Positions 5,825-30,824 of a DNA stretch of 64,000 bases are shown piece after piece; positions within the stretch are counted from its first letter, which is position 1, and the number at the start of each line of letters is the position of its first letter. The translations under genes and the position numbers were made by a program. Source of the stretch: a virus (Duplodnaviria; Heunggongvirae; Uroviricota; Caudoviricetes); the IMG/VR virus record IMGVR_UViG_3300037400_004417. One strand, 5' to 3'. The notes under the pieces are model-generated. The model did no database searches and was not told the origin of the DNA. It was given only the letters and a program-made list of their open reading frames with translations.

Positions 5825-8118
5825 ATAATTTTTTCTGCCGGTAACAATCTATCTTCATAATACATCTTTTCTATATCTTTAATAGTAAGATTACGGAGAT
5901 AATCAGCGCCGAATTTATCCTTCAAGTCCCTTATGATATTATAAACTCTTACATCCTGTTCAGTAGCAAAGTTCTTTCTGACAGTCTTATTCTTAGAAAT
6001 AGATTCTAATAAGCCTCTCTTATATTTCCAGTACTTATAGAAAGGAGTCTTATATTTGAACATAAATCCATTAGAGTCTTCAAAGACATATCCTTCATAA
6101 AAAGGTTCATTGTTGTTTTCATGAAAACTTATAAAAGACTGCAAGTTATCCCAAGAAAAGAAAAGAGCTTTCGGCTTTTTAACTTCTATTTTAAAATCTT
6201 CAGCTATTTTCTTAACTTCTTCATAAGGTTTCTTATTAAACTCAAAGGTATTCTCTATAATATCTAAAAGATATAGATGATCTTTTTCATACCATATAGG
6301 GTGAGAGCTGTCTCTACTATCTACAACTTCAAAGACCATAGTTATGTTATTCTCTTTCAGATAGGTCTCAATTGCTTCTCTTGCATCTGCTGGTAACTTA
6401 CTGAACTGATACTTGAGCATGTCAGAGTATTCACCAGACAACAATGTCTTAGAACAGAACAATAACTTATCTTGTTCTCTGTCATAAGAGATAAGACCTA
6501 AGAAACCGTTCTCTTTCTTGTAGGCTGTCACAGGAAATACTAAAGTATTTTTTAAGGCTTCATCTGTAGTATTCTCTGTTTCAAGCCTGTTAAAAAATTT
6601 AGAATATCCTCTCGCTGCGATATCTCCTGTACTATTATAAACAAATAAGCCTCGAGCAGTACAGGTAAGGTTATTCCATTCTCTGCGCTTAAAAGCGCCC
6701 TTCGTAAAATTGTAAGAAGTTATATGCCCCTGAACAGTCTTTTTAATCAGCTTTGACTTCTCTAGCTGATCAATAATCTCAGTTTTATTATTATCAGAAA
6801 CTGTCACGTTTTCATTAGCAAATACTATAGGAATAATTCTTTCGTTGGGTATAGTATTCTTAATACGATGAACAGTTATCTCAGAAACTTCTAGATTTTC
6901 TTTTTTCTTGATCTGAAGAATTCTTAAATCGCCGCCGGTTTCTACCTTATCACAGAGATTATAAATCTTATTCTTAACTACTTCAGTCTCAACATCATAT
7001 ACATTACGATGAGCATGAATAAAGATACAGTCTGTATCAGACTCTAGAACTTCGTATAGCTTATCAGTATCTTCATACTTACCGACACCGTTAATAAGCT
7101 GATAAGTAGGAGTAAACCAGTCTGGAGGAGTAGGATAGCCACCATGACAGATAAAATAATCTTCTCCGGCAAAATAAAAATAAGCCATCTGAGCGAACTT
7201 GCGGCAGAACTGTCTTAAATCCTTCTTAGAAATATCCTTAATCTGAGGCATTGTATATTCCAAGAACTCCGCAGACCTAATCTTCTGGTGCAGTAAATTC
7301 TTAAGTTCCTTTTTGCTTAAAGTATTTCTCTGTTCATCAGTGACAGGAATTTCGGCGCCGTTGTCATCAGCATACATCCTTAACCATTTTTCATGATTGC
7401 CTTCTAAGAATAATACATTCTTATTCTGAGACAAGTTCATTAAGAATTCCAATGTCTCCTTATTCTGTAAGCCTCTATCTAAATAGTCTCCGGTAAATAC
7501 ATAACCGATCTCATTGTCAAAAGGATGTTCGTCAAACCATTTTTTTAAAGGTTCATAACAACCATGAATATCTCCGAATACCTGTACTTCCTTATAGTTA
7601 GAGTAATCATAGAACGGTTCTTCGTTACAGATAAAATTGCTAGCTTCATCGGGAGTCAAAGTATGAAATCTCTTAGATACTTCTTTATCTGCTTCGAATA
7701 CGGCATACATTTTACGGATAACTGCTTCAGGAACGAATTTGTAAGCATCTCTTTTCTTGTTTCTTTCTAAAGCAGTTTCCAAAGGAACCTGAGTAAAGTC
7801 AACGATAAAGTTTCTGTAGCGGTACTTAGATACTAAGTTTTTGTATCTATTAAGAAGTTCACTCTTATAATGGGTAGCGTCAATGATAATAAGCTCGCCG
7901 CGTTCCATTCTCTGTTCTAGCAGCTCCATTAATAGATCCCATACTTTTCCATCATTATTCTGGGAAATAGTATAATTGCCGTCAATATTCATAATAGGAC
8001 ACTGATACAGCAATCTGATATTGTCAGCAGATAAAGTATATCTTTCTAAATCGTTATCCTTAATCCAAGTAGATTTTCCGGCACCCGGAGCACCTCTTAA
8101 TAAAAATAACATTCGCAT
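5821..8118 (-). CDS. Pnkp-like polynucleotide kinase / metallophosphoesterase / ligase-like end-healing enzyme
   Basis: 765 aa; N-terminal P-loop kinase GAPGAGKST; central calcineurin-type phosphoesterase motifs GDIHG, GDYLDRG, GNHE; roughly 300-aa C-terminal domain in the position of the ligase/adenylyltransferase domain of bacterial Pnkp. Confidence 0.55.
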   Translation of the reverse strand: MRMLFLLRGAPGAGKSTWIKDNDLERYTLSADNIRLLYQCPIMNIDGNYTISQNNDGKVWDLLMELLEQRMERGELIIIDATHYKSELLNRYKNLVSKYRYRNFIVDFTQVPLETALERNKKRDAYKFVPEAVIRKMYAVFEADKEVSKRFHTLTPDEASNFICNEEPFYDYSNYKEVQVFGDIHGCYEPLKKWFDEHPFDNEIGYVFTGDYLDRGLQNKETLEFLMNLSQNKNVLFLEGNHEKWLRMYADDNGAEIPVTDEQRNTLSKKELKNLLHQKIRSAEFLEYTMPQIKDISKKDLRQFCRKFAQMAYFYFAGEDYFICHGGYPTPPDWFTPTYQLINGVGKYEDTDKLYEVLESDTDCIFIHAHRNVYDVETEVVKNKIYNLCDKVETGGDLRILQIKKKENLEVSEITVHRIKNTIPNERIIPIVFANENVTVSDNNKTEIIDQLEKSKLIKKTVQGHITSYNFTKGAFKRREWNNLTCTARGLFVYNSTGDIAARGYSKFFNRLETENTTDEALKNTLVFPVTAYKKENGFLGLISYDREQDKLLFCSKTLLSGEYSDMLKYQFSKLPADAREAIETYLKENNITMVFEVVDSRDSSHPIWYEKDHLYLLDIIENTFEFNKKPYEEVKKIAEDFKIEVKKPKALFFSWDNLQSFISFHENNNEPFYEGYVFEDSNGFMFKYKTPFYKYWKYKRGLLESISKNKTVRKNFATEQDVRVYNIIRDLKDKFGADYLRNLTIKDIEKMYYEDRLLPAEKII

Positions 8119-8133: not shown

Positions 8134-8457
8134 TTATTTACATTTTTGCTGCAGGCGAAGATTTTCCCGAGCTTGAAAAATTTCTTTCAATTCAGTATCA
8201 AAATCAGCTGAAGGAAAAAGTTGATTCAAGTGGTTTTTTAAACATCTAAAATAATATCTAATTGCATTTATATCTTTTAAATAAGACGATACAGCCATAA
8301 ACATTCCTATTTTATCATGAGTAGCTATATCTTTTTCGTCAAATTCCATTAATTTATTAATCTCGGTTAATTCTATTCTAGCTTTACTTGTTCGTTCGCA
8401 AGATAATTCTTCACTAATTCTATATACATATTTAGCGAAATCAGATATATGTTCCAT
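8134..8457 (-). CDS. hypothetical protein
   Basis: 107-aa ORF. Confidence 0.4.
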   Translation of the reverse strand: MEHISDFAKYVYRISEELSCERTSKARIELTEINKLMEFDEKDIATHDKIGMFMAVSSYLKDINAIRYYFRCLKNHLNQLFPSADFDTELKEIFQARENLRLQQKCK

Positions 8458-8480
8458 GCAATTGACTCCTCTATGTTAAA

Positions 8481-12576: not shown

Positions 12577-12939
12577 TCATTCATGATAAGGTTCAAAATA
12601 TCTCCAGGCTTTTACATGTTCCATCTTTAGCATGCCGTTATTTCCATCTTTGACAAAGTTAGGATAAAAACAAGATGCTACTCTTTGTCCAATATAATAG
12701 CGACTACTTTTTCCTACATAGAAAACGGCTAATTTATATTCTTCAGGATAATCTTCTACAGACTGTATAGTTATCCAATCATTCATTTTTTTATTCATAT
12801 CCCCTTGCAAAAATTTTCTAAGCATTTGTCTCAACAGATATATTGTTTTTCCACATCGTCTTGGAATAATATACTTATACTTATTCCTTCTTACGCCTAA
12901 CTTCTTTAGAAGAAGAATATCTAACTTAATATCAATCAT
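12577..12939 (-). CDS. hypothetical protein
   Basis: 120-aa ORF. Confidence 0.4.
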   Translation of the reverse strand: MIDIKLDILLLKKLGVRRNKYKYIIPRRCGKTIYLLRQMLRKFLQGDMNKKMNDWITIQSVEDYPEEYKLAVFYVGKSSRYYIGQRVASCFYPNFVKDGNNGMLKMEHVKAWRYFEPYHE

Positions 12940-13858
12940 TGTTCTTGTATCTCTTTACTTTAGCCTTATAATTGCCATCTTCTCTTCTATGACAATGAGG
13001 ACATTCGTTAGCTATTATACCGGTATAACCACAGATAGGATCGTAATCTACAGGATGATTTATACTAATATAACCCATATCTGCTTCTACCATATTTTTA
13101 ATAAGCTTTTCAAACGCTGGTAAATTCTGCAATGGATCTCCAGGGAATTCAATATAAGCTATATTACCGGCATCCGTTTCACGATGATAAGGAGCTTCGA
13201 TTTCTATTTTATGTTTAGCGGAACATTCGTAATATGTTGGCACATGACTTCCATTCGTAAAATAATCTCTATCTGTTACTTTCTTTACGATTCCAAAATC
13301 TTTACGTGCAGCACGTAAGGATACTCCACAGAAATTTTCAGAAGGACTAGCAAAAGTACTCCAGTTCAAATGTGTTTCTTCAGTGAATTTTGTAGTCATA
13401 GCTCTTAAATGTTTTACGATTTTTAATCCTAATTTCTGAGCTTCCTCAGATTCTCCGTGATGTTTGCCTATCAAAGCTACTAAGCACTCTGCTAATCCTA
13501 CGAATCCAATACTTAAACTAGCATTTAGTAAAGCTGGTCTAATTTCATCCGTAAGTTTAAGTTTTTCGGAACCTTCATATAGACCTTGAGCAAATACAAA
13601 AGGATAATTATATACTTTTTTCTTAGCGATGATTTCAAAACGCCATTCTAAATATTTTTTACCCAAGTGAATATATTTGTTAAAAAGTTTAAAGAATTCA
13701 TCAATTAATTCCTTAGATTCAACAGTTTCATCTAAATCAATATTTAAATTTTTCTTAGCTTGTAAGGCTAAATACGGTAAATTAATAGTAGTAAACGCGA
13801 AATTGCCTCTAGATGCGGCATGTTCTGGCCCGTTTACGTTACTCATAACTCTTGTTCT
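12932..13858 (-). CDS. nrdD: anaerobic ribonucleoside-triphosphate reductase NrdD, exon 4 (C-terminal; glycyl-radical and Zn-ribbon)
   Basis: glycyl radical motif ICGYTG, C-terminal CPHCH Zn site; in-frame extension CRTRV upstream of the first Met; intron ends in G at 13859. Confidence 0.8.
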   Translation of the reverse strand, partial: RTRVMSNVNGPEHAASRGNFAFTTINLPYLALQAKKNLNIDLDETVESKELIDEFFKLFNKYIHLGKKYLEWRFEIIAKKKVYNYPFVFAQGLYEGSEKLKLTDEIRPALLNASLSIGFVGLAECLVALIGKHHGESEEAQKLGLKIVKHLRAMTTKFTEETHLNWSTFASPSENFCGVSLRAARKDFGIVKKVTDRDYFTNGSHVPTYYECSAKHKIEIEAPYHRETDAGNIAYIEFPGDPLQNLPAFEKLIKNMVEADMGYISINHPVDYDPICGYTGIIANECPHCHRREDGNYKAKVKRYKNND

Positions 13859-14092
13859 GCACTTTTATTAATAACTTGAATTTCTTCAAGGATCGGACTA
13901 TATCTTTATGCTATTAATAGCATATCTTCCATTTGGATATATAAATCTACGAGCGTAATAGCTCTAGTCTCTGAACCGAGTATTCTTTAAGAATACGATG
14001 GCTGCTGATTGTCGGCGTCGTCAAATTCTTTTATTGACAACACTACGATTTCCAGCAATTAGGAAGATTTTACATGAGCTGTAGAAAAGTTA
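13859..14092 (-). ncRNA. group I intron, nrdD intron 3 (family A, ORF-less)
   Basis: S-like cggactatatcttt (13905) and gctgctgattgtc (13998) on plus strand; exon 3 ends GGT (U), intron ends G; joins ...FAAAMG to CRTRV. Confidence 0.6.
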
Positions 14093-14378
14093 ACCCATGG
14101 CTGCTGCAAAGGTACGATAATCTCCTTCTTTATAGTAAGGAGCATTAAATGATGAAGACGTATTAAGAAAATTAGGGAATAAACGCTTCGCACTTACTTT
14201 GCAAGCATACTGGAATAAATCATAATTAGGATCTCCTTTTTCAAGATTTATTCCTTTATGGATTTGGAATACAGATATTGGGAAAATTGCAGGCTCTCCT
14301 TTTCCCAATCCATTCCATACTGCTTCTAATAAATACTTAGATACTAATCTACCTTCCGGAGAAGTATCCATTCCGAAA
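14093..14378 (-). CDS. nrdD: NrdD exon 3
   Basis: continues the NrdD reading frame; stop at 14090 lies just inside the intron. Confidence 0.6.
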
Positions 14379-15850
14379 TTAATAGAGCTAAATGGTCAGT
14401 AAGTTATTATCTCATGGTTTTTTATCCATGACTCTGGAAGTTTCCTTCATTTGAAGTTATCTCATTAACTAGTCAATTCTAGTTCAGCTTGGCGTACATT
14501 TTCATCCTATTATTAAATAGGAGTAAGACACTCTTGGTTATATTTTATTCTATAAAATAGTTTCAATAACTACGCTCTACGATGATATTGTTTTTTACGC
14601 AATATTTATCTCGGTATTGACATATCTGCTATTATATTCTTGTATAGCGGCCATAGCCTTTTCGTATTTTCTAAATAAATAAGTTGTAGAATCTGTATAT
14701 AAATAATTTATTAATGCAATAACATCTTTCTTAGATGACCATTTAACGGAGAATATTCCTTTTTCATAACTTGGTTTATTAAATGCGATGTTTAATTTGT
14801 TTGATAAATAATTTCTAATATCGTATATAATATTATCATGTCCACAAAATACAATGTGCCATGAAGGATTACGGTTAGTTAAAATTCGTCTATAAATACT
14901 TCCATCTCCATCGAAATATCCTCTTATAAAATGTTTATACATTTCTTCTTTTAATGTAGGAAAAAAACGATTAGGTTTATAATTAACCATTCCATGTCTT
15001 TCTAAATGTTCTACAAATTCATTATTTGTTACACTAATAGAAGATTCATTTTTTCTTTTGTCTATGACAATTTTTCTAGGTGCTTTTATTAAATCCTTTA
15101 TTTTCTTTATCATATAACTATCAGATTCTTGCAATTCAATTGTGAAAAGTTTACTATTATTTTTATATTTATTTATGAAAATACATCCATCGGCAATAAA
15201 TAACCCTAATAAATAAGCTTTTTCTTCACTATCTATTTTTTCAAAAAAGTTAGTTATTAAACTTCCTCTATTTAAATCTTGTCGATTATAAATGGAAATA
15301 TTATTTCTTTCTAAAACTTTTTTTGCCGTTAATTCACATATATGAAATTGTTTTGATAAGGCCTTTATTGACATAGGTTTTGTTAAATAAAAATTTATTA
15401 TCTTATTGTCGTCCAATATTTTTTTATTCATAATTATTTCACCTCCTTTTATCTAAAATAGCAGATTTAGTTTTTACCGACATTGTCTTATTTAAAAAAT
15501 ACATTACTGTATTCTCAGGCTACCATGTTAACCTGCGAACCGGCTCTACTATGACCTAACTACCCTCGGTTTCCCGATATTTATTAGGGGAGTAGACTAT
15601 CTTTTCATTTCTTGTGAAATGTCTCATCTTTTGAATAATAATATTATTCTACTTCCATATTGGAATAGTCGTTACACTTTGCTTTATTATCAAAAAACAA
15701 AGCACGGTATTTGCAGCTATCCTTTTTTATTAAAAGGACCTTAGCGTCTCTTACGGAGCTGATTCGAGCACAATGCCTTATTTAACTCCTACCGTTAGCC
15801 TTAATTATTTATTAAGACACCCTATATTTATAGGTTAATGAGATTTTCCG
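14379..15850 (-). mobile_element. group I intron, nrdD intron 2 (family D), carrying a LAGLIDADG HEG
   Basis: core 15690-15840 is near-identical to the core of the UvrD-helicase intron at 26790-26940; boundaries approximate. Confidence 0.55.
14595..15431 (-). CDS. double-motif LAGLIDADG homing endonuclease with N-terminal HTH
   Basis: YLLGLFIADGCIF and IRGYFDGDGSIY motifs; 278 aa. Confidence 0.8.
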   Translation of the reverse strand: MNKKILDDNKIINFYLTKPMSIKALSKQFHICELTAKKVLERNNISIYNRQDLNRGSLITNFFEKIDSEEKAYLLGLFIADGCIFINKYKNNSKLFTIELQESDSYMIKKIKDLIKAPRKIVIDKRKNESSISVTNNEFVEHLERHGMVNYKPNRFFPTLKEEMYKHFIRGYFDGDGSIYRRILTNRNPSWHIVFCGHDNIIYDIRNYLSNKLNIAFNKPSYEKGIFSVKWSSKKDVIALINYLYTDSTTYLFRKYEKAMAAIQEYNSRYVNTEINIA

Positions 15851-16440
15851 TCTTTATGCGGCCCCTACACAGTAAGGGAATTAAAATTGAAAACTAGTGC
15901 TTCCATTGCCTGTTTCGTTTCTTCTTCTACGTTTTGACAGGCAATATTATAAATAATTTCTCCATAACTTCGTTTATCAAAGTTATTCCTTGGAATTGTA
16001 AAATATGGTCCGATTCCGATAAGTCCTAAAATTTCGACCATATTTTTCCTGTCTTCCTCTTTATCTTTATATTTTATACGAGATAATATTTCTTCACCAT
16101 CTTCTTTATCTATATATAAACGACAGGAATGTTCTCCATTTGTTATTTTACATAAATTGATAAGCGCTTTTTTTAAATATTTCTGAAAACTTATATGAAC
16201 ATATTTTCCTAAAGCGAAATCAAATCCTACTAAACTTTGACCACCGAAGCAATCATTCTGTGCACTTTGTATTAAAATACATGCTAGAGATGCTGCTGCT
16301 CTGATAGACTTAGGAGGGCGTATAAAACCATGTCCAGTATTAAATCCATGTTTTAATGCCTTGCCTAAGTCAGAGTACAGGCAGTTAATCGTGATAAGAG
16401 AAAAATCCGCATCCGACCAATCGTCTTTTAGCAGACGATT
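15851..16440 (-). CDS. nrdD: NrdD exon 2 (no ATG, so absent from the ORF track)
   Basis: minus-strand translation reads ...DDWSDADFSLITINCLY...CFGGQSLVGFDFALGKY..., a NrdD core motif. Confidence 0.7.
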
Positions 16441-16694
16441 GGTCTGACTATATCATCATCTGTATGTTTGCTATTAAAATACAGATGCTAGGCACTTCAT
16501 ATATAGAATACTACTTGGTTATCACCAATAGTCGATTGACGGTCTATATTGTAAATAATAGTTTCGCACAGGATAACGTCGTAATAACGCTTCCCCTGTT
16601 AGCCTATCTTCTAATCATCATTTTCTATGATTCCTAAACGTAAGACAGACACCCCAGATTTCTGGGTTCACCTAGTTTTTCCATCGTAACTCAC
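16441..16694 (-). ncRNA. group I intron, nrdD intron 1 (family C, ORF-less)
   Basis: S ctgactatatca (16442) and R tagtcgattgac (16535) on plus strand; almost identical to the 5-prime gyrA intron. Confidence 0.55.
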
Positions 16695-17233
16695 GCTACG
16701 AGGCCACAATGCAACTTATGGATATGCTGGATATGTTTCTTATGCATTTCGCGGAATTCTTCAGGAAGAACATAATTATTAAGATACATCTTCGCATTTT
16801 CTGTTCCAAGCTTTAGCATGATTCCCATCGGAGCATCAGTGTTAATATTGGCATTGTCTCTTTTGAGGTCCATCTCCTCTGAATCAGCGAATAATAAATC
16901 ATGATTAAGCTTCATAAGATTTTCGGCAGCGTCTCTCTGCATCCTATGTCTTTCACGATATAAGATATACTTTTTAGCTGTTACGGGGAACATCTTACTT
17001 AGAGTACGTTCTACGATATCCTGGATTTCTTCTACGTTAATAGAATACTGCACTTCTTCATCGATGCTTAAAATTTCTTCTGAAATCTTACTGCTTATGT
17101 ATTCTATATCTTTCTCGTTCATTTCAGGAGACTCATCATATTCCAGATCATTATTAGCTTTAGTAATAGCTATCTTAATTCTTTCTGGATCGAAGTTTAT
17201 AATGTCTCCATTACGTTTTTCAACAGCAATCAA
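16695..17233 (-). CDS. nrdD: NrdD exon 1 (ATP-cone N-terminus)
   Basis: MIAVEKRNGDIINFDPERIKIAI is ATP-cone-like. Confidence 0.7.
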
Positions 17234-17240
17234 TTTAACT

Positions 17241-17519
17241 TCATCCTTTCTTATGATGTTTATCGAATTTTAAATAAATATCGGCAGTTTTTGGATAATC
17301 ATATTCTTTTAACTTTTGAGCGACGATTGTTTTTAAAGTTTTAGTTGTGACTTTATGTACATCCTTTATATAAATATCTATAGCTAATAATATTTCATTC
17401 ATGCCGTTGGTTGATATTTCTTTTGTAGTCTTATTTGCTTTTAACACAGAATGATAAATCTTAGGAGGTTCATAAGGAACTTCCATCCCTGAATTTTTTA
17501 TGATAATTCTTGGAGCCAT
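17241..17519 (-). CDS. hypothetical protein
   Basis: 92-aa ORF. Confidence 0.4.
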   Translation of the reverse strand: MAPRIIIKNSGMEVPYEPPKIYHSVLKANKTTKEISTNGMNEILLAIDIYIKDVHKVTTKTLKTIVAQKLKEYDYPKTADIYLKFDKHHKKG

Positions 17520-18229
17520 TTTAACATCACTACTTTCTCTAAAAAACTAAATCCATTATTCATGAAGATATAATCTAAAATATGTTTAGACCAAGATTCA
17601 AAATAACCATACTTAGCGATTAAATTGTTATAATCCATCCAAGAACCAGTTAGATTATCTTTTTCTTTAACGAATACTTCATTAGCTAACACGATAAATA
17701 CTATACCAGTATGATCATTAGTAGAACTACTTAAATCTCTTACATAACCGAATACATTTAATTTATTATTTACGAAATTTATATTTAATTCTTCATTCAT
17801 TTCACGTTTAGCGCAATTTAAGATAACATTTCCATAATCAGATGGATTAATATGACCACCGCAACCTAAAGAAAAACTACCTTGTAATCTTTCTTCACCA
17901 CTAATTCTCTGAGTAACGTAAAGATGTTTTAACTCTTTATCCGCTATCAAGATATAAGGAATAAGCTGTTGAAAAGCCGAGTTATATTCAGCATCATATC
18001 TCATGATAAATTTACCTAGAGTAGTCCAATCATCGATATTTCTATTAACTTTTTTAGCAGGAGTAAATTTATCTGGAATTATTGTAGTTTCATTGTATGG
18101 AACTACGAATACTTGTTCAGTTGGATACTTAAGTTTTAAGTTTCTTTTAACATCTAAAGTATTCACGATATAAAAAATCACCTCAAAGTTAAGATAAAAA
18201 TAGCAGCTATTTTCCTTGAATCTTTTCAA
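17498..18229 (-). CDS. possible Nudix-family hydrolase
   Basis: GGHINPSDYGNVILNCAKREMNEELNI loosely matches the Nudix box GX5EX7REUXEEXGU. Confidence 0.3.
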   Translation of the reverse strand: MKRFKENSCYFYLNFEVIFYIVNTLDVKRNLKLKYPTEQVFVVPYNETTIIPDKFTPAKKVNRNIDDWTTLGKFIMRYDAEYNSAFQQLIPYILIADKELKHLYVTQRISGEERLQGSFSLGCGGHINPSDYGNVILNCAKREMNEELNINFVNNKLNVFGYVRDLSSSTNDHTGIVFIVLANEVFVKEKDNLTGSWMDYNNLIAKYGYFESWSKHILDYIFMNNGFSFLEKVVMLKWLQELS

Positions 18230-18273
18230 ATTTATAAGAAAATAGCTGCATATCTTTTACTTACGAAAAGAAA

Positions 18274-18549
18274 TTACTTCGCAACAGAATCTTTAAAATA
18301 CTTGCCTGCCTTAAATGCAGGAACCTTTGTCGCTGGAATTTCTACACGTTCCTTCTTCTGAATATTGTAACCAGTACGAGCTGCACGGTTACGTACTTCA
18401 AAAGTACCGAAGCCTGTAATCTGTACGTTATCGCCATTAGCGAGAGCATTGATAATTTCATCAAAAACAATGGTTACATAGTTCTGTGCCTTCGTCTTAG
18501 GAATTTCTGCTTTCTTTGCTACTGCTGCTACTAAATCTGCCTTTGTCAT
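18274..18549 (-). CDS. hup: HU/IHF-family DNA-binding protein
   Basis: 91 aa; GFGTFEVRNRAARTGYN and VPAFKAGK are classic HU arm motifs. Confidence 0.85.
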   Translation of the reverse strand: MTKADLVAAVAKKAEIPKTKAQNYVTIVFDEIINALANGDNVQITGFGTFEVRNRAARTGYNIQKKERVEIPATKVPAFKAGKYFKDSVAK

Positions 18550-18573
18550 GTTTTGTTTTCTCCTTTTTAAGTG

Positions 18574-18915
18574 TTAAATTTTTCTTTTAATGTAATTATT
18601 TTTCTCTAAGCTTATGCAACTTAGATGGCACCAACGACATTCCATACCAGATGAGTTCTTTATGCCATATATTTGCTTTACTTTTTCACAAGCAGCATAA
18701 TGATTTGTTTTAGGAATAAAGATATCTGACTTATCTTCTGGAGGATTATAGTATGCGTTAATGCATTTTATTATTTTTTTATTGCTAAGAAACATAGTCC
18801 TATTATTTAACTGCCTAACCGTTATATTAGGGTGTGTCCTTTCTAATACCTGTTTAAACTCTTCAGGTTCCATGTTTCCAATAAACCTTTTAAAATAAAA
18901 GTCAAAGAATTTCAT
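18574..18915 (-). CDS. hypothetical protein
   Basis: 113-aa ORF. Confidence 0.4.
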   Translation of the reverse strand: MKFFDFYFKRFIGNMEPEEFKQVLERTHPNITVRQLNNRTMFLSNKKIIKCINAYYNPPEDKSDIFIPKTNHYAACEKVKQIYGIKNSSGMECRWCHLSCISLEKNNYIKRKI

Positions 18916-18941
18916 TTTTTTACCACATAAATATTGTCGTA

Positions 18942-19319
18942 TTATTCAGAATAACACGAGGAACAATATGATTTATTATCAGAGAGTTCAAATGTTTCAC
19001 ATGCTTCACAAATAGTCTTTCCACATTTCGCACAAGTCGTTAATTCAACGTTATTAGTTGAACAATTAGGACAAGTACCTTTATTTTTAGCCGTCAAAGT
19101 TTTAATTTTGTCAGAGATTTCATTGATTTTGTTTAATCCTCGATGGCTACTTTGTAGAAATGTATTATTTGTCGTAGAAGCGTGATTCTCTGAATCATTT
19201 GTCTTATTTATATTAAAATAAGGACATTTCTTCACTTCTACTTCGATATTCTTCTGAATAAATAAGTTATTAACTATACAAATCTGTTGATTATTACAAA
19301 TTTCACATGAAATATTCAT
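18942..19319 (-). CDS. zinc-ribbon protein
   Basis: multiple CxxC pairs (CEICNN, CPNCS, CAKCGKTICEAC, CSSC). Confidence 0.4.
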   Translation of the reverse strand: MNISCEICNNQQICIVNNLFIQKNIEVEVKKCPYFNINKTNDSENHASTTNNTFLQSSHRGLNKINEISDKIKTLTAKNKGTCPNCSTNNVELTTCAKCGKTICEACETFELSDNKSYCSSCYSE

Positions 19320-19342
19320 AAAAAATGAGAAACCTTTCTGCT

Positions 19343-19933
19343 TTAGCTAATAGAAAACTTATCTTCTAAAGTTACTTTTTCTATGCCGGGAACAACTTGA
19401 CCATCCAACATAAGCTTGCCGTCCTTAAACTTTCCTGCGGCCTTTAATTTTACTTTGTCAATCTTAGGAGGAGGGGTAGTTAAGAACTGAGAATAATGTG
19501 GATTGCTCTGCAAATACTTTCTCAGAATATCTTCTTCGTAATTAGTTTCTTCACTTTTACGGAAACTCATTTTGCCTTCTGGCAAAGTTAGAGTTTTAGT
19601 TTTAGCATTAATTAACTGTTCTTTAGCATAAGCTTTTAGCCTGGAAGCCAACCATTCCATAGTCCATGAACGCTTCCTTGCTTCTTCTTCTTTCCAGGCT
19701 TCAACTTTTGCTTTATGTTTTTCTATAATAGATTTAGCCGTTTCATTTACTTCATTTAATTCGGCTTGTAATTTATTATACTGCTTAATTAAATAATTAG
19801 CCTGTTCTCTATCCTTGATCGTAAAATTATCTTCGGTAGAGATATTTAACTCTTCAATTTCCTGTTCATCGATAAAATCTAAGAGTTCTTCGGTTAAAGA
19901 CTTTGTTTCTTGAATTTCATTGGTATCTTCCAT
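19343..19933 (-). CDS. Gam-like host-nuclease inhibitor / DNA-end-binding protein
   Basis: N-terminal coiled coil; AWKEE..SWTMEWL and C-terminal GIEKVTLEDKFSIS resemble Mu Gam (GW..ANRDELTNGGK..., GIEDFSIIP). Confidence 0.45.
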   Translation of the reverse strand: MEDTNEIQETKSLTEELLDFIDEQEIEELNISTEDNFTIKDREQANYLIKQYNKLQAELNEVNETAKSIIEKHKAKVEAWKEEEARKRSWTMEWLASRLKAYAKEQLINAKTKTLTLPEGKMSFRKSEETNYEEDILRKYLQSNPHYSQFLTTPPPKIDKVKLKAAGKFKDGKLMLDGQVVPGIEKVTLEDKFSIS

Positions 19934-20036
19934 AAAAAATCAGTCATCCTTTCTTTAACGATTTATATTATATATTCTTTAACGAGTTATGTCAAGTACT
20001 TTAACAAAAAATATCAAAAAAATATTCTAGTTAAAG

Positions 20037-20285
20037 TTAATCTGAAGTTAGGATATTAATTAAGTTTTCCATTTCAGCATCAGTCAAGGTAATTCCTTTA
20101 CTCATTTTAGTATGATCTTCTGACCACTCTCGGATATCATATTTAGGAGAAGCACCATTCCAAGATATTCGATTTAGTTCTTTACTCCAACCTTTTTCAG
20201 ACGTAGATATAACACCACATTTTTCTACGATATTAAATTTGATTTCTTTTGTAGCCATTATAAAAACACCTCGTCTAATTTGCAA
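20037..20285 (-). CDS. PC4/YdbC-like ssDNA-binding protein
   Basis: EKGWSKELNRISWNGASPKYDIREWSEDHTKMSKGITL matches the bacterial PC4-like (YdbC) signature. Confidence 0.55.
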   Translation of the reverse strand: MQIRRGVFIMATKEIKFNIVEKCGVISTSEKGWSKELNRISWNGASPKYDIREWSEDHTKMSKGITLTDAEMENLINILTSD

Positions 20286-20304
20286 GATTAATAGAAGAAG
20301 ACCG

Positions 20305-21373
20305 CTATTCGCAGTCTTCTAAACCTTCTCCTCTTACAATCTGATTATCATATTTTTCTTTTTTATTGATAATTTTCATAGCTATTTCATCATAAGATCC
20401 ATTAGCTATTAGCTGATATACATGAGCAGTATCACTTACGCTATCTGCTCGCTGTATTCTTCCATGTCTTTGAGTCTGTATAGCATAGCTGTTAGCTAAG
20501 TCCATTTCGATAAGATAGGAACACCAACCAAGAGAAATACCTTCAGCGCCGGCGTCTGATAATAGCAATATCTTACATTCAGGATTATCTCTAAATTTTA
20601 TAACATTGGCATATCTTTCATCACCGCTAAGAGAGCCATTTACAAAAGCCAATTCCATATTGAACAAGCTATTTCTTTTGGCTTCTTTGATTATACGCTT
20701 TTCTATTATGTCTTGCATTTTCTTATACCGACTAAATATACAAACTTTTTCTTCGGAATCAATAATTTCTTCTAATAATTCTATTAATAAATCCATTTTT
20801 GGATCTGAAGGAGAATTAGTCATATATTTTTGAGCATGTTCAGAATCACTAAATATTAAAAGTTCTTCAGAATCTGCTAACTCTTGGGCGAATGTTTGCC
20901 TCATCATTATTCCTGCTTCTATCTGTAATAATTCTGGAGGTTTTTCTTTGAGTTGTTTGCCACCTGTTAATGCTTTTTCTTTTTCATGGAGTTCATCTAA
21001 TTCTGCCATAATCCGGTCGTTCATTTTTAGTTGTTTAGGATGTAAATCACAATATCTTTGAGTAACGACTAGTTTCGGTAATTGAGATGAAACTTCTTCC
21101 TTCGTTTTTATTATAGTATATGGACTTATCTTTTCATTGAGTTTCTTTTCATTCCTAGAACCAATTACCCTACCATAACCGCCCCACTTTAAGTATGTAT
21201 TATCAAACTGGGATTTCTTAGGAAAGATTTCAGGATTTATAAACTTAAAGATTCCAAACAAATCTCTAGGATCACGTTGCAATGGAGTAGCAGTAGCACC
21301 CACAGTCATTTTAACATCGTTAAATTCATATAATGATTTAGATCTTTTAGCTGAATCAGATTTTATGTATTGG
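20305..21373 (-). CDS. SNF2-family helicase, exon 2 (motifs III-VI)
   Basis: TVGATATPLQ (motif III), QTQRHGRIQR (motif VI); frame open upstream of the listed Met to about 21373. Confidence 0.65.
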
Positions 21374-21816
21374 CATTAATGTTATTTAATTTCATTTATT
21401 TTATAAAAAAATAAAATTAAATTTCCTATATTTAGGACTCTGATTTTCATCAGAAGTTCAGACTATATCTTCATCCTTATAAAAAAGGAGTCGAGCATTT
21501 CGATTTAAAGGACTTTCACCTACCTGATACCAGGCCCTACTCCTATTGGCATTTCAGCCCACAATGGGATAGTCGTTGAACCTTCTCCTTACTCCACAAG
21601 TGAAGGAGCTTGGCTGCTGATCGTCGATTTTTATTTGAATTTTAGGACTATATTTTTTTATAGCTTTTATTTCACCATGATTCATTTTATTGTTTCTTTC
21701 AGTCTTTCGACAACATTCGCACTTATTATTTCTAATTATGCTGTAGTACAATAAACTTTACGATGTCCCAGCAATTAACTCGATTTTTTCCTACACATTA
21801 CTGTATAGGGAGACCC
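21374..21816 (-). ncRNA. group I intron (family A, ORF-less) in the SNF2 helicase gene
   Basis: S cagactatatctt (21460), R gatagtcgttgaacc (21573), gctgctgat (21612) on plus strand; proposed junction DEIN|IQYIKSD with exon end U and intron end G. Confidence 0.55.
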
Positions 21817-22553
21817 ATATTAATCTCATCCGCTCCAATAAAATCTAATTTCATTTTATGTAATTTAGCTCTTACTTTATCATCATTAAGAGTTTCATAA
21901 TTACATATCATTAAATCTACATTTTCGAATTGTTTATTGAATGCTTCTTCATTTCTGCATTTAGAATAAGTATCTAATATCTTAGAACGATAATCTGTAA
22001 ATTTTGATACTTCTGCATTCCATTGAGCTTTTAAAGATGCTTTAACAACTATTAATCCAGGAGGGGTTATCTTTCCTAAATTAACGGAATCAGAGAATAT
22101 ACCTAGTAAGCAGGCTGTTTTGCCAGCTCCACAACCTGCGACGATAAGACATTTTTCATTATCTGTCGCGAATTTGATTATATCCTGTTGATATTTATAA
22201 GGTTTAAGTTTTAAACTTAATCCTGCAGATTCAGAATCAATTATTTTTTGGCTAGATCCAAAAATCTTATTGACTCTATTGTTATGAGCAGTAATTCTTT
22301 TTTCTGTTCTATCCTTTTTAGCAGGAAATACTTCGTCGTTTAATTTGATTAGCTTATTTAATGCATATTCAGATATAAGCCAATCTCCTGATTCTATGTC
22401 CATACAAGATTCAGATTTTCTATCTCCAATGATATACATAAATTTATCGAAGTATTTCATAGCTTTAGATGAACTAGAAATATTTACAGCGAATTTATTA
22501 TCTTTATTCTGAAGTTTACGATAATAAAACAATTCTTTCTTGATGACCTTCAT
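21817..22553 (-). CDS. SNF2-family helicase, exon 1 (Walker A and DExx)
   Basis: AGCGAGKTA Walker A, GADEIN motif II. Confidence 0.65.
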
Positions 22554-22989
22554 TATCTATCCTTCTTTCTTTTACTAAAAAATAGTCATACGAGAAATTA
22601 GAACGTTCTTTTACGATATTTGCTTCAGTTAAAATTAATCTTAAAATATGAAGATCTGTTAAAGATATAGAAAAAGATTCGATTATTCTTGAATCTTTTT
22701 TGCATAGATATATATACTCAATTAAACTTTTATCAAGTCGCATAAAACAATTATTTTTTACGTATTCGCGTAAAAATATGGTAAATCTATTAGCTAAACA
22801 AATTATCTTATAGATATCTTCCTCATCTTCAATTACATTTAACAAATAATCTAGATATATGTATTTGTCATCGTGATTTAAAATCATAAGAAAATCTTTT
22901 AAACCATTCAAGAATATTGTTTTTTCTTCATCACTGTATTCAGTCAGCAATATAGGATTAAAGAAAATATTCGCAGAATTTTCTAGCAT
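22516..22989 (-). CDS. hypothetical protein
   Basis: 157-aa ORF. Confidence 0.4.
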   Translation of the reverse strand: MLENSANIFFNPILLTEYSDEEKTIFLNGLKDFLMILNHDDKYIYLDYLLNVIEDEEDIYKIICLANRFTIFLREYVKNNCFMRLDKSLIEYIYLCKKDSRIIESFSISLTDLHILRLILTEANIVKERSNFSYDYFLVKERRIDNEGHQERIVLLS

Positions 22990-23169
22990 TATAATTATCC
23001 TTTCTCTTTTGTGGATAGTTAATTATTTTTGAGGTGATTATATATCTATTTTTTCCTTTTGTCAAGCATTATTTCATCATAATCATATAAAATAAATATT
23101 CGCCATATTGATACTATTTTGTTGGATGTTTCTATTGCGAAGACATCCAACAAAATATATCTTAATGAT

Positions 23170-24561
23170 TTATTTATACAATTTATCAGGATAATCAGAT
23201 TCTACTTTAAAAGAGTTAATATCGTCAAGTAATTTAGTAATTGGTTCTGTAACAATACATTGCATAGCCAATGCCTGTTCTTCTTCATCAACTCTGACAT
23301 GAGCAGGTGCTGTCATATATTTACTTAACGCAATCATACTGTTTCTCATCAATACTTGAACTTTTCTGCATACAAACTCCCTTAACTTTTCTTCATGTCT
23401 TTTATAAGCGTCATTACAACGGCGTAAAGATTTGAGTTGTTCGCATAACTTCTCATTTTCTTCTTTTAGTTTATTATTTTCTTTTTGATAATCATCTTTA
23501 TTGTTTTGCAAAGTATCTATAACAAATTTGCTTTTCTCAACATCTTCAGAAATACGTTTATTATCTTCAGATAAAGCTGCAATTTTTTCAGCGTATTTAT
23601 TTGTTTCATTTAAATTATATGATTCCATAGAATCAATAATACTTCTTAAATTATCAAATAAATTATTCATAGATTCAGAAGAAGATACTTTTACATTTGA
23701 ATCATCATTATGTAATTTTGATATAACTGGATCATCTTCTATTACTTTATTATCTTGTGCTTTTATCCTACTAGAAATATCTATAATCTTTTTTAGATTT
23801 TTTTCTCGATTACTTTTATGTTCTTTTGCTTTCGATTCTATAATTTCCTGAAAGATTACGGATACATTTTCTGTATTAATTTCTTCTGATGCTTTTTCGT
23901 ATTCTTCTTCAGTCAAAGTTAATTTAGCTATATAATAATTAGCGATACTAGTTTTAGAAGGAACTGCGTGTTTAAACACCTTTAAAACTTTATGATCTTG
24001 TAGTAAATTTAACACATCGAAAGTAAAATCAATTGGTTGTAAGCATCTCGCAGCTATTTCCATAGCTTCTAATTTTATCCATTTTTTGTCAGCTTCTTGA
24101 GAAAATAAAACTCCTAGAACATTAAGAATATCTACTGCATCCATCGTAGTTATGTCAATTAATGATGAAATCAAATTTTTATCTTCATCGGATAAGTCTT
24201 TAGTAGCTACAGCTTTTAATCCTAATTCTTTCTTTTCACTCTCATTAACCCATTTAAATGCAAAAGGTCTCATTTTAACGGCTAAAGGATGTTTGCCACT
24301 AGGATCAGTCATCATTAATTTAGATATAATATTAGGATGTTTATGCAGTTTATAAACAACATGTTGCATTTCTCTGACTTTTAACGTATTCTTTTCTTTA
24401 CTATAAATTAGAGTAAACCAATCATCTGATTCTTTTATTCTTCTTATTAAATCTTCATAAATAGGTTTCGTAATTTCTTCAACTATCTGTTCTTTCTTTC
24501 TCTTATTTTGAACAATAGCTGGTAAAGCATATACTGTTATTTTGTCTAAATGCCTGTCCAT
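23170..24561 (-). CDS. hypothetical protein with C-terminal coiled coil
   Basis: 463-aa ORF. Confidence 0.4.
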   Translation of the reverse strand: MDRHLDKITVYALPAIVQNKRKKEQIVEEITKPIYEDLIRRIKESDDWFTLIYSKEKNTLKVREMQHVVYKLHKHPNIISKLMMTDPSGKHPLAVKMRPFAFKWVNESEKKELGLKAVATKDLSDEDKNLISSLIDITTMDAVDILNVLGVLFSQEADKKWIKLEAMEIAARCLQPIDFTFDVLNLLQDHKVLKVFKHAVPSKTSIANYYIAKLTLTEEEYEKASEEINTENVSVIFQEIIESKAKEHKSNREKNLKKIIDISSRIKAQDNKVIEDDPVISKLHNDDSNVKVSSSESMNNLFDNLRSIIDSMESYNLNETNKYAEKIAALSEDNKRISEDVEKSKFVIDTLQNNKDDYQKENNKLKEENEKLCEQLKSLRRCNDAYKRHEEKLREFVCRKVQVLMRNSMIALSKYMTAPAHVRVDEEEQALAMQCIVTEPITKLLDDINSFKVESDYPDKLYK

Positions 24562-24611
24562 ATTCTAAACGCCCTTTCCAATTAAACTTAATTATATATC
24601 TCTTTAAAAAA

Positions 24612-25760
24612 TTAAGTTTTTACTACGTATTGGGAATTTATCTCCTTGATAAATCGTGAAGGTTTGTTAGGGAACACGCCTCTTTTAGTAAGTACAGTGG
24701 TTGGATAGGTTATAAAAAGATACTTTTCGGCTCTCGTCATTCCGACATAGAATAACCTTCTTTCCTCTGAAATATCTCCAGCCTGTATTGCTTTTATATG
24801 AGGAACAACTTCTTCATTTGCTCCAACTATAATTACAGCTGGAAATTCCAAACCTTTAGATGCATGCATAGTCATTAGATTAACATAATCATCTTCATCT
24901 TGTTCTTCTGTCATCTGGGTATTCATTATAACATTATTAGAAAAGTCAGCTAAATCTACATAATTACATGCTACTTCTCTTAACTCTACTAAATTAGCTA
25001 ACTTTTCAGGAACTAATTCTTCTTCTGCTGTTTCACTAATATAGTCCTCATAATGAACCATATTAATGATCTCTTTAACTATGTCTTCAGGACTATTTGC
25101 TAAGCAATATTCGGTTAAAGTTTCAATTACAGCGATAAATCTGTTCAAATTTTCTCTTGTTGTCTTTGTTACCTTCACATTTTTACAAGCGGATAATAAT
25201 CCCCCGTTGTCTATTGTACCATGTTCATCAGCATATGTAAAGACCTTTTCTAAAGTTTTATCTCCAATTCCTCTCTTTGGAACGTTGATAATACGTCTTA
25301 ATGCTTCTGAATCATTAGGGTTTAATAGAAATCTGACATATGCCATAATATCTTTGATTTCTTGTCTCGCATAGAAAGCTAAACCGCCGGTGATTTTATA
25401 AGGAATTCTATTCTTTAACATAGCCTTTTCTATACGCCTAGACAAAAATTGCATTCTGTAAAGTATCGCCATATCTTTATATGCCATACCTTTTTTCTTT
25501 AAAGCTTTAACAATACGTACTACATGGTTTGCTTCATCAGTACTATTAGTCAACGCAGATAACATAATGCTGTTTCCTACTTCATTTTCAGTAAAAACAG
25601 TTTTCTTAATAGGTTCGTCATTGTTCTTAATCATACTGCGAGAAGCATTTACGATAGTTTTTGTGGATCTATAATTTTGTTCTAACATAAATTGTTTAAA
25701 ATTATATGTCTTCATAAAATCATATACGGATCCCATATTTGCGCCTCTGAAACTATATAT
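24612..25760 (-). CDS. UvrD/PcrA-like helicase, exon 3 (motifs IV-VI)
   Basis: IYSFRGA...LEQNYRSTKTI...VGMTRA; in-frame extension upstream of the Met to 25760. Confidence 0.75.
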   Translation of the reverse strand: MYSFRGANMGSVYDFMKTYNFKQFMLEQNYRSTKTIVNASRSMIKNNDEPIKKTVFTENEVGNSIMLSALTNSTDEANHVVRIVKALKKKGMAYKDMAILYRMQFLSRRIEKAMLKNRIPYKITGGLAFYARQEIKDIMAYVRFLLNPNDSEALRRIINVPKRGIGDKTLEKVFTYADEHGTIDNGGLLSACKNVKVTKTTRENLNRFIAVIETLTEYCLANSPEDIVKEIINMVHYEDYISETAEEELVPEKLANLVELREVACNYVDLADFSNNVIMNTQMTEEQDEDDYVNLMTMHASKGLEFPAVIIVGANEEVVPHIKAIQAGDISEERRLFYVGMTRAEKYLFITYPTTVLTKRGVFPNKPSRFIKEINSQYVVKT

Positions 25761-27000
25761 CTTTTTTATTTATTATATATACATTGATAAAAATACATGA
25801 ACATCATAGGTAATACATTTAATAATAAAAAACATCTCAAAGGAGTGTATACCTATGACAGAAAAACAGATATGTAAACAACAACAAATGATTGCGGCAG
25901 CAAATGAGTTTATCAAAGGAGCTAAACCGCAAGAAGTAATGAAAAAATACAATATATGTTATGCTTCCATTTGGAACACAATCAAAAGATATAATCTTCC
26001 TTACAAAAAGACATGGGGAAGAGAAATATTTTTTGATATTGATTTCTTTGAAAAAATTGATACAGAAGCAAAAGCTTATTGGTTAGGATTTATTTTTGCA
26101 GATGGTTCTGTAGTCAAAACAGACAAAAACTTACAAGAATATAATCGAGTATGTGTATCAATATCAGCAAAAGACATTGCCCACCTTCAAAAACTAGAAT
26201 CAATTCTTAATTTTTCTAAACCTAATAGAATCAAAATTTATAAAAAAACTCCAAATGCTTCATTTAAAAGTGAATATGACACTTGTTATCTTCATCTAAA
26301 TTCGATAAAATTATGTTCTGATATCATAAATCATGGTTGCGTTCCACAGAAAACATATGATACTACTCATAATCCACAAAATATCCCAGATCACTTAATA
26401 TGTCATTTTATAAGAGGATATTTCGATGGAGATGGAAGTATTTCTGGAAAACTAAAATCCCCAATGTTCAGTATTACGACATCAAAAAACCATAATGAAT
26501 GGATACAGTCTTATTTAATGCGTTTTTGCAATCTAAACAAGACTAAACTAACTTTTTGTCGCAATGCTTATCAATTAGATTATGGAGGAATAAATCAAAT
26601 TGTTCGTATTTTTCATTATTTATATGATGATGCTACTATTTATCTTGAACGTAAATATAATAAATTTTACTCTTATGTTTCTAATAGAGAACAGACTATC
26701 TCTTCATCCTTATCTGAAAAAGATAAGGAGCTCGGCACTTCGGCATAGGATTTTCACCACAGCCTACGAGAATCACTTCTCTAGTCGTTACACTCTTATA
26801 ATATTGTATATTATACTAGCACGGTATTTCCAGCTATCCTTTGTTTTGCAAAGGACCTTAGGTTCTCTTACGGAGCGTATTCAATATATTAACTCCTACC
26901 GTTAGCCCTCATTTTTAATAAATAAAACAAGGACACCCTATATTATATAGGTTCACCGAGGATTAATTATTCATTGCTGAATAAAAGAGCAATATAGTTT
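25761..27000 (-). mobile_element. group I intron (family D) in the UvrD-like helicase, with an antisense LAGLIDADG HEG
   Basis: exon 2 ends ...DADQS (AGT, U) at 27001; intron ends in G at 25761; exon 3 resumes IYSFRGA; core 26790-26940 is homologous to nrdD intron 2. Confidence 0.65.
25855..26748 (+). CDS. double-motif LAGLIDADG homing endonuclease, on the strand opposite to its host intron
   Basis: YWLGFIFADGSV and FIRGYFDGDGSIS; own RBS aaaggagtg. Confidence 0.8.
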   Translation: MTEKQICKQQQMIAAANEFIKGAKPQEVMKKYNICYASIWNTIKRYNLPYKKTWGREIFFDIDFFEKIDTEAKAYWLGFIFADGSVVKTDKNLQEYNRVCVSISAKDIAHLQKLESILNFSKPNRIKIYKKTPNASFKSEYDTCYLHLNSIKLCSDIINHGCVPQKTYDTTHNPQNIPDHLICHFIRGYFDGDGSISGKLKSPMFSITTSKNHNEWIQSYLMRFCNLNKTKLTFCRNAYQLDYGGINQIVRIFHYLYDDATIYLERKYNKFYSYVSNREQTISSSLSEKDKELGTSA

Positions 27001-27977: not shown

Positions 27978-28105
27978 ACCACTACCTGGTCCCGCGTTTA
28001 CTGCACAAGGACCGTAATACTCTAATGCTGCTTGCTTTTGCTGGTTATTTAATGGAGCCAGCACCTTCTCCTTTATATTTTTAAATTCTACATTTGTTTC
28101 TGCCA
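27978..28105 (-). CDS. UvrD/PcrA-like helicase, exon 1
   Basis: MAETNVEFKNIKEKVLAPLNNQQKQAALEYYGPCAVNAGPGSG. Confidence 0.6.
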
Positions 28106-28144
28106 TAATAAAACATTAACCTTCTTCCTATGGTTACGATACCA

Positions 28145-28342: not shown

Positions 28343-28408
28343 TCCTATATCTATTAATGAGAATAAGAAGGGGTGAACAAATAAGTCACCCCCTATATCT
28401 TTACTATT

Positions 28409-30808: not shown

Positions 30809-30824
30809 TTTATAAAAAACTCCT

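Follow-up and report, generated by a model that had tools for sequence, protein, structure and literature searches.

A phage gene for a class III ribonucleotide reductase, probably split by four group I introns of which two lie 24 nucleotides apart

The stretch of 64,000 nucleotides (nt) analysed here, hereafter called the window, comes from the IMG/VR virus record IMGVR_UViG_3300037400_004417 (Caudoviricetes) and carries on its minus strand, from 17233 to 12932, an interrupted nrdD gene for the class III (anaerobic) ribonucleotide reductase. The window has a guanine-plus-cytosine (G+C) content of ~31% and is transcribed almost wholly from the minus strand; its source is an uncultivated low-GC phage equipped with a class III reductase gene. 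Six-frame translation of 17300..12900 on that strand gave four open blocks and an open reading frame (ORF) of 278 amino acids (aa). A first-pass annotation had arranged these blocks as four exons separated by three introns. The four blocks do encode NrdD segments, but the boundaries given to them were ORF-based approximations, and the count has to be raised to five exons and four introns, a 24-nt exon between the second and the third block having been overlooked.

Exon 1 (17233..16718, on the minus strand like all the nrdD parts described here; 516 nt) begins with a TTG start codon and encodes residues 1-172, ending in ..HIQHIH. It holds the N-terminal part of the NRDD domain and, as initially proposed, an ATP cone, which is recognised by Pfam. 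Its junction was fixed by alignment with uninterrupted homologues and by the pairing of P1 and P10, the helices that an internal guide forms with the end of the 5' exon and the start of the 3' exon. Intron 1 (16717..16414, 304 nt), assigned to group I and devoid of an ORF, is followed by exon 2 (16413..15875, 539 nt), which runs from DADFSLITINC.. to ..FNFNS plus the CT of the Leu352 codon. Next come intron 2 (15874..15555, 320 nt), assigned to a sunY-like group IA and also without an ORF, the 24-nt micro-exon 3 (15554..15531) and intron 3 (15530..14397, 1134 nt), assigned to group IA and containing an endonuclease ORF. The micro-exon reads T CAT AGT AGA GCC GGT TCG CAG GT and supplies the last base of Leu352, the residues HSRAGSQ and the first two bases of Val360. 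Exon 4 (14396..14093, 304 nt) supplies the last base of Val360 and continues from PFSSINFG.. to ..FAAAMG. After intron 4 (14092..13862, 231 nt; no ORF, assigned to group IA2), exon 5 (13861..12932, 930 nt including the stop codon) opens with the codon of the finger-loop cysteine Cys462 (CRTRV..) and closes with the zinc ribbon ..ICGYTGIIANECPHCH.. The whole gene spans 4302 nt, of which the introns make up 46%.

Joined in silico, the five exons give 2313 nt and 770 aa with no internal stop, and the product aligns contiguously with NrdD as had been predicted, end to end with uninterrupted homologues when the micro-exon is included. It yields one uninterrupted match to Pfam NRDD (520 bits, residues 126-756) in addition to the ATP cone (57 bits), is 67% identical over 100% of its length to the uninterrupted homologue P0001 (765 aa), and matches the NrdD structure of Prevotella copri (PDB 8p23) with an E-value of 9e-148. 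All residues invariant in an 11-sequence alignment are retained, and conserved residues stand on both sides of each junction (HIH|DADF, NSL|HSR, SQV|PFSS and AMG|CRT). Cys183 and Cys462 align with Cys79 and Cys290 of T4, and the features by which NrdD is recognised, namely barrel domain, finger-loop cysteine and ATP cone, are all present; in the T4 structure, Cys290 is the cysteine that bears the thiyl radical at the finger-loop tip. The introns are inserted between His172 and Asp173 (J1), in the Leu352 codon (J2), in the Val360 codon (J3; ..CGCAGGT|ACCATTTAGC.. once the intron is removed) and between Gly461 and Cys462 (J4), directly 5' of the finger-loop cysteine codon.

Because J2 and J3 are only 24 nt apart, a micro-exon remains between introns 2 and 3. 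The first-pass annotation had placed a single intron with a LAGLIDADG endonuclease gene in this region; the endonuclease gene is there, but the region resolves into intron 2, the micro-exon and intron 3. One could still imagine that 15874..14397 acts as one LAGLIDADG-bearing intron or that the micro-exon is skipped, leaving four exons and three introns. Exons 2 and 4 (539 + 304 nt) can indeed be joined in frame to a contiguous-looking product, and the skipping of exons by group I introns has been recorded for phage Twort (cited in PMC3073962). However, since homologues carry HSRAGSQV between the end of exon 2 (..FNFNSL) and the start of exon 4 (PFSSINFG), these exons cannot simply abut: skipping would remove these eight residues, including S354, R355, G357 and Q359, four positions at which the 11-sequence alignment shows no variation. 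The 24-nt segment codes for precisely these eight residues, and each of its flanks has a complete ribozyme core, a terminal G and a P1/P10 pairing with the micro-exon, which is engaged by P10 of intron 2 and by P1 of intron 3. In addition, the left part of the motif is continuous in the related sequence L025, and the micro-exon of another relative, L022 (TCATAGTAGGGCTGGAAGCCAGGT), differs from that of the window at 6 of 24 nt, all of them synonymous, one Ser codon being changed at all three positions (TCG/AGC). As these differences are synonymous only, they are strong evidence that the micro-exon is translated, and a three-intron layout appears very improbable.

The four intervening sequences bear common marks of group I introns. 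Each 5' exon ends in U and each intron in G, which agrees with what had been claimed for the junction ..FAAAMG|CRTRV... Guides located 10-20 nt from the intron 5' end pair with the final 4-7 nt of the upstream exon and form a U-G wobble at the splice site (5' exon/guide: CCAU/GUGG, CCCU/GGGG, CAGGU/GCCUG and CAUGGGU/GCUCAUG in introns 1-4), and P10 lies immediately upstream of the guide. P10 comprises 7, 7 and 5 perfect base pairs (bp) in introns 1-3 and 6 of 7 in intron 4, becoming 7 of 7 against an intron-less allele found in the strain L021. As a control, random U...G sites in the window were examined, and 0.8% of them combined a P1 of 4 bp or more with an adjacent perfect P10 of 5 bp or more. 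A P7 of the GACUA/UAGUC type with R and S elements was identified in introns 1, 2 and 4, and GCGUA/UACGC in intron 3.

In intron 1, P10 (UUGCAUU, nt 4-10) precedes the P1 guide GUGG (nt 11-14), and the R (AAUCGACUA) and S (GAUAUAGUCAG) elements are invariant. A consensus fold with homologues, including a paralogue in the window (~42640..42330), contains 84 pairs, 32 of which are compensatory; a focused Rfam search gave a full-length match to the model (E 3e-7), below its gathering score, and a nucleotide search of the phage collection returned matches of 80-100 nt in Enterocloster phages. Intron 2 has P10 UACUGUG (nt 1-7), P1 guide GGGG (nt 10-13), P3 UCUCAU/AUGAGA and R (GUGUAACGACUAUUCC) and S (AAGAUAGUCUAC) elements closely resembling their counterparts in the sunY intron of T4, together with P7.1, P7.2, P8 and a GAAA-capped P9. 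Its three-sequence consensus fold (82 pairs, 17 compensatory) recovered the P7 GACUA/UAGUC and replaced a four-sequence MAFFT/RNAalifold run on divergent intron-2-like sequences, which was too poorly aligned. Only the last 45 nt of intron 2 match the phage collection, with 94-98% identity to intervening sequences in terminase genes of Herelleviridae and Enterococcus phages. Intron 4 has P10 UUCUACA (nt 7-13), P1 guide GCUCAUG (nt 14-20), P3 AUCUUCC/GGAAGAU, R (GGUUCAGAGACUAGAG) and S (AAGAUAUAGUCCG), and found no nucleotide match in the phage collection. As a separate observation, the P7-3'/P9 module of intron 2 (GATAGTCTACTCCCCTAATAAATATCGGGAAACCGAGGGTA; 15555..15608) is 90-98% identical in ~200 records of Staphylococcus, Listeria, Enterococcus, Bacillus and Lactobacillus phages, including L016 (2501..2544) and L017 (2501..2548), the remainder of the intron being different.

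For intron 3, the assignment draws on covariation within its own family. P10 AUGGU (nt 5-9) and the P1 guide GCCUG (nt 11-15) are accompanied by P3 UAAGACA/UGUCUUA, P4 UCGGU/ACCGA and a P7 GCGUA/UACGC set in R-like (GUAGAGCGUAG) and S-like (AAAAUGUACGCC) contexts, and then by P7.1, P8, P9, P9.1 and P9.2. ORF-less members of the family interrupt an AAA ATPase gene (29737..29433), a UvrD P-loop (27977..27646) and a ClpX-like gene (50262..49875) of the window, and others are present in L022 and L025. In the six-sequence alignment of this family, 98% of the cells of P7, P7.1, P9, P9.1 and P9.2 are paired and 18 of the 27 pairs are compensatory; none of 500 shuffles scored as high and slid controls fell to 30-45% paired. 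Covariation extends to P3, which reads UAAGACA/UGUCUUA in the window, UAGAACA/UGUUCUA in L022 and UCGAGGU/ACUUCGA in L025, and to P4 (UCGGU/ACCGA in the window versus UCGAU/AUCGA in L025). Another candidate for P7, CCA(A)G/CUGG, was dropped after the six-sequence alignment had given the covarying GCGUA/UACGC with its R-like and S-like context. In the phage collection, intron 3 has matches in Clostridium, Lak and other phages.

The ORF of intron 3 (15431..14595, minus strand; 278 aa) is a predicted LAGLIDADG homing endonuclease gene with its own Shine-Dalgarno sequence. Two LAGLIDADG motifs (LLGLFIADGCI and IRGYFDGDGSI) are combined in one chain, which matches Pfam LAGLIDADG_3 (37 bits) and LAGLIDADG_1 (28 bits) and is weakly similar to the I-DmoI structure (E 1e-4). 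Comparison with the ORF-less homologue of L022 places the insertion between P5 and the 3' strand of P4, the last codons overlapping P4' and P6; a comparable overlap exists between I-TevI of T4 and the td ribozyme (PMC3073962). The endonuclease would spread intron 3 into intron-less alleles. As the micro-exon and exon 4 together could hold its target of ~20 bp, homing would be possible with or without intron 2. Elsewhere in the window, a LAGLIDADG ORF on the plus strand (25855..26748) is antisense to its enclosing UvrD intron and contains a 40-nt stretch 100% identical to the intron 3 endonuclease gene; with two further LAGLIDADG ORFs (45139..44282 and 42149..41340), there are four in the window altogether.

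Pairwise similarity among the four introns is insignificant (best E-value 0.07) and, as far as sequence comparison goes, they fall into four families, unrelated as had been suggested beforehand but four rather than three in number. With the Rfam model RF00028 (gathering score 50 bits), intron 4 reaches 85 bits and intron 1 34 bits, and introns 2 and 3 give no match, which makes intron 4 the sole match within nrdD at the gathering threshold. Several observations weigh against four efficiently self-splicing introns. Introns 2 and 3 (for intron 3, its 3' half) had no match even in focused permissive Rfam searches, introns 1 and 2 each have a P1 helix of just 4 bp, and the P7 of intron 3 is 5 bp long and includes a single covarying pair. 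At J2 and J4 the sequence leaves the exact splice site ambiguous by one T, and both sites were placed by the terminal-G rule. Some introns may need a protein cofactor or splice inefficiently. The Rfam misses themselves are not counted against group I identity, because the model likewise misses the related intervening sequences that split terminase genes in a Silviavirus and in an Enterococcus phage.

A functional gene in which at least one intron, most plausibly intron 2 or 3, is not autocatalytic and relies on a protein helper such as a LAGLIDADG maturase, with conditional expression as a result, would be in line with the short P1 helices (4-5 bp), with the four LAGLIDADG ORFs of the window and with the known maturase activity of LAGLIDADG proteins (PMC3073962). 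The intron 3 homologues of L022, L025 and three other window genes are nevertheless ORF-less, which indicates that the core of intron 3 is independent of a cis-encoded protein, and the sequences give no sign of a missing core element. We consider such a dependence unlikely.

Comparison with relatives provides natural alleles with and without these introns. L021, which is 98-99.6% identical to the window, lacks intron 4 (14092..13862) at the predicted junction, within the ambiguity of one T, and its allele CAUGGGU|UGUAGAA is a perfect complement of the P1 and P10 guides of intron 4. A search with exon 5 alone showed that P0121 (402 aa), encoded by the L021 contig, is 100% identical over this exon; all 10 nucleotide differences between window and L021 in exon 5 are synonymous, and three of them lie within 60 nt of the junction. 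No intron interrupts nrdD in P0001, P0002 and L018. L022, one of three sequences (L022-L024) reached through the protein P0244, has exons 1 and 2 fused without intron 1, a ~90% identical intron 2 at the same site and an ORF-less intron 3 homologue after its micro-exon. L025 has an intron 1 homologue at J1, no intron at J2 and, between Gly357 and Ser358, 9 nt upstream of J3, an intron of the intron 3 family; the intron 1 homologue found at J1 in L001 contains an HNH endonuclease gene. Metagenomic NrdD fragments also have their ends at the junctions: P0246 ends in ..MG, P0136 and P0139 begin with MCRTRV, P0122 begins with M+PFSS, P0026 starts precisely at the first residues of exon 2 and P0244 stops precisely at its last residues, a fragment end ..NFNTL being on record as well. 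Independent assemblies and contigs reproduce both the junctions and the architecture. Apart from this, P0244 (L022 1588..2673) is ~98% identical to the window NrdD over its first 107 residues and ~50-60% over the remainder; this drop suggests that exon 1 contains a recombination breakpoint and that mosaic exchange took place between phage lineages.

These comparisons also bear on the idea of a decaying pseudogene whose fragments are separated by sequences that no longer splice. Two introns that escape the Rfam model and an intron share of 46% could be taken in its favour, but 2313 nt free of stops and frameshifts, the presence of all alignment-invariant residues, the purely synonymous differences of exon 5 and the micro-exon from strains and relatives, the compensatory changes that keep the ribozyme helices and the recurrence of the same architecture in independent assemblies make decay highly unlikely. 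Inteins, group II introns or an assembly artefact can be given hardly any credence. Inteins do occur in other NrdD homologues (P0107 and P0178, with Hom_end/LAGLIDADG_3 domains), but all four intervening sequences run into in-frame stops within 0-8 codons and fold as group I cores, they contain no reverse transcriptase gene and no GUGYG start, and their junctions are reproduced by independent contigs.

We conclude that nrdD very probably consists of five exons and four group I introns whose removal would restore an intact NrdD core, four independent group I introns having colonised one gene at four highly conserved sites. A primary transcript of ~4.3 kilobases (kb) would fold into four ribozymes, in each of which the internal guide would form P1 with a 5' exon ending in U and P10 with the start of the 3' exon. 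Every intron would then be excised by guanosine-initiated two-step transesterification, leaving a reading frame of 2313 nt that encodes an NrdD core of 770 aa. Enzyme activity would also need a separate glycyl-radical-domain protein and the NrdG activase.

The presumed need for a separate protein arises from the C-terminus. ICGYTG in the last exon had first been taken for the glycyl-radical site; it aligns instead with the zinc ribbon (CxxCGY) of PDB 8p23, at the knuckle CLDCGY, and with FTCGST of T4. The large NrdD ORF ends 18 residues past CPHCH and covers positions 1-532 of the 562 of the Pfam NRDD profile, and the C-terminal glycyl-radical motif (RxxGY) is absent from the 770-aa polypeptide. 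A tblastn search with the small ORFs of relatives, followed by splice reconstruction, located a glycyl-radical-domain gene at 3473..2808 on the minus strand, 9.4 kb from nrdD. Its exon a (3473..3239) ends in ..KFDRIRRITG plus T and its exon b (2893..2808) continues with AT and LTGTVDRWNNAKRAELKDR.. Between the two lies a group I-like intron of 345 nt (3238..2894, all on the minus strand) with R-like (GGTTCAACGAGTATAA) and S-like (TTAAAGTACTAC) elements, an exon ending in U and an intron ending in G. This fifth intron interrupts the Tyr codon that immediately follows the radical Gly (RIRRITG|YLTG). The spliced product of 106 aa covers Pfam NRDD positions 533-561 of 562 and residues 704-736 of 8p23, which is exactly the portion absent from the large protein.

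Relatives encode a ~96-aa ORF downstream of nrdD with FERIRRITGYLTG..WNNAKRAE..RVKH (L025 2450..2740; L018 12500..12787), P0285 from another lineage also ends in ..RRITG, and a search of representative proteins with exon a alone gave 7 matches. The NrdD of a Selenomonas belonging to the same clade ends alike, and no glycyl-radical ORF was found within 3 kb downstream of it. The window also encodes an nrdG-like radical-SAM activase (52957..53478, minus strand; Pfam Fer4_12, 141 bits, and Radical_SAM). In a paper on the ribonucleotide reductase family, the glycyl-radical domain is described as C-terminal, and a separately encoded one is not mentioned there (the search was not exhaustive). We tentatively propose, with somewhat less confidence than doubt, a two-polypeptide reductase in this phage and its NrdD clade, in which a free-standing glycyl-radical protein of ~100 aa would dock in trans on a core lacking the domain. 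If it works in trans, such a separate domain would be of interest to ribonucleotide reductase enzymology. Two intron sites adjoin catalytic residues, that of intron 4 before the finger-loop Cys codon and that of the fifth intron between the radical Gly and Tyr codons.

Regarding the phage itself, the window has no nucleotide relative in the phage collection, where the 24.5-kb block 17500..42000 was searched without a match. Its replication module (HU, NUDIX, NrdD, Band-7, ThyX and others) is syntenic with that of the uncultivated phage contigs L002, L018 and L021. The best NrdD match among deposited phage records, in human faecal contigs, is 43% identical; a viral-contig scan with the spliced protein found only homologues of 32-48% identity and was left unused. 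Compared with the near-identical L021, the window has two extra segments, 8134..8467 (334 nt, with a 113-aa ORF) and 6324..6415 (92 nt), and a 1.1-kb segment of L021 (4063..5205) that falls between window positions 10544 and 10543 is absent. A free-standing ATP-cone ORF of 92 aa (17241..17519, minus strand; Pfam, 41 bits) lies in another frame and ends 7 nt before the nrdD TTG; in L002, a 223-aa ORF takes its place directly upstream of nrdD.

At least 11 further group I or group I-like intervening sequences interrupt other genes on the minus strand, which with the four of nrdD makes ~15 in 64 kb. Called from S-element matches, Rfam matches (75, 62 and 38 bits) and family alignments, they are located at 57350 (S element), 50262..49875, 46920..46698, 45456..45199, ~42640..42330, ~38092..37740, 29737..29433, 27977..27646, ~26973..25770, 21832..21438 and 3238..2894. 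The interrupted genes include those for ClpX-like, gyrase/topoisomerase-like, RecA-like, AAA ATPase and UvrD (two introns) proteins, among others. At 57770..55226 (minus strand), directly after the group I S element at 57350 come an IS607-type serine recombinase gene (56527..57252), TnpB (55350..56570) and a RAGATH-18 RNA (55226..55287, 66 bits); in its arrangement this locus resembles an IStron, in which a group I intron is joined to an IS607/TnpB transposon and its guide RNA. The last UvrD exon contains, at 24700..24797 (minus strand), a sub-threshold match to RF03531, 'C. difficile sRNA included into helicase gene' (37 bits for a gathering score of 65).

Fungal mitochondrial genes of the cox1 type are known for tandem group I introns that leave very short exons and for LAGLIDADG endonucleases that drive their spread, in an organellar setting unlike that of the phage nrdD described here. 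To our knowledge, within a literature that was not searched exhaustively, no phage case of a 24-nt exon between two group I introns is known. The closest single-intron counterpart is nrdD (sunY) of T4, which is the same host gene and carries an intron of the same group IA2 class as intron 4. Nucleotides 13-34 of intron 4 and of the T4 intron are identical at 21 of 22 positions, including the guide GCUCAUG, and short collinear matches are found beyond. Nevertheless, the T4 insertion lies in the codon of Tyr180, equivalent to Phe347 here and five codons upstream of J2, and coincides with none of the four sites; intron 4 is ~115 codons downstream of it, with a 5' exon CAUGGGU instead of UAUGAGU. 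T4 has one intron with I-TevII (GIY-YIG), whereas the present gene has four, with a LAGLIDADG gene in intron 3 and an ORF-less intron 4. Intron 4 consequently has neither the site nor the I-TevII ORF of the T4 sunY lineage and shares with it the guide, the P2-P3 region and core motifs. Intron 4 may have come to its present site when a T4 sunY-like intron reverse-spliced into a sequence that fits the same guide, the two 5'-exon ends (CAUGGGU and UAUGAGU) being similar.

Group I introns have been reported in phage ribonucleotide reductase genes of T4 (nrdB and nrdD), Twort (nrdE), SPbeta and Brochothrix A9 (PMC3653736). Two or three introns per gene occur in the DNA polymerase and terminase genes of Bastillevirinae (PMC11878797), and three in one Twort gene, with exon skipping (PMC3073962). 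Twort orf142 and nrdE, Brochothrix A9 nrdE and the Bastillevirinae genes resemble the present case in having several group I introns at conserved sites of one essential gene, some of them with homing endonucleases; these multi-intron genes were reported with at most three introns, against four of four families here, two of which are 24 nt apart. In the jumbo gut phages called Jug (360-402 kb genomes, Bacteroides or Phocaeicola, a mean of 18.5 introns per genome), group I introns and endonuclease genes break nrdD into as many as four fragments; metatranscriptomes confirm part of the splicing, and one nrdD gap lacked splicing evidence (PMC12880540). The parts of that account consulted mention neither a micro-exon nor a separate glycyl-radical gene. 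The density of ~15 introns per 64 kb in the window is far above the published figures compared (for Jug phages, 18.5 per 360-402 kb in the same parts of the account).

To conclude, this locus is an extreme example of a known phenomenon and no new kind of element. Its distinctive traits are four introns of four families, a 24-nt exon shared by two ribozymes, intron-plus and intron-minus alleles, an intron-split glycyl-radical gene and a high intron load, and the gene, itself apparently intact, has four unrelated group I introns against a maximum of three per phage gene in the papers compared. The motif NxNxLHSRxGxQxPF is an insertion hot spot, with four different points, including those of T4 and L025, within ~40 nt. 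Gene callers and the Rfam group I model fail on such a locus and would yield four or five "NrdD fragments". The corrected anatomy has a bearing on annotation and on how intron load is counted in metagenomes of gut phages. Besides, the gene offers a natural test case for co-ordinated splicing, as its 24-nt exon must pair in P10 with one ribozyme and in P1 with the next, and its natural intron-plus and intron-minus alleles are usable for homing experiments.

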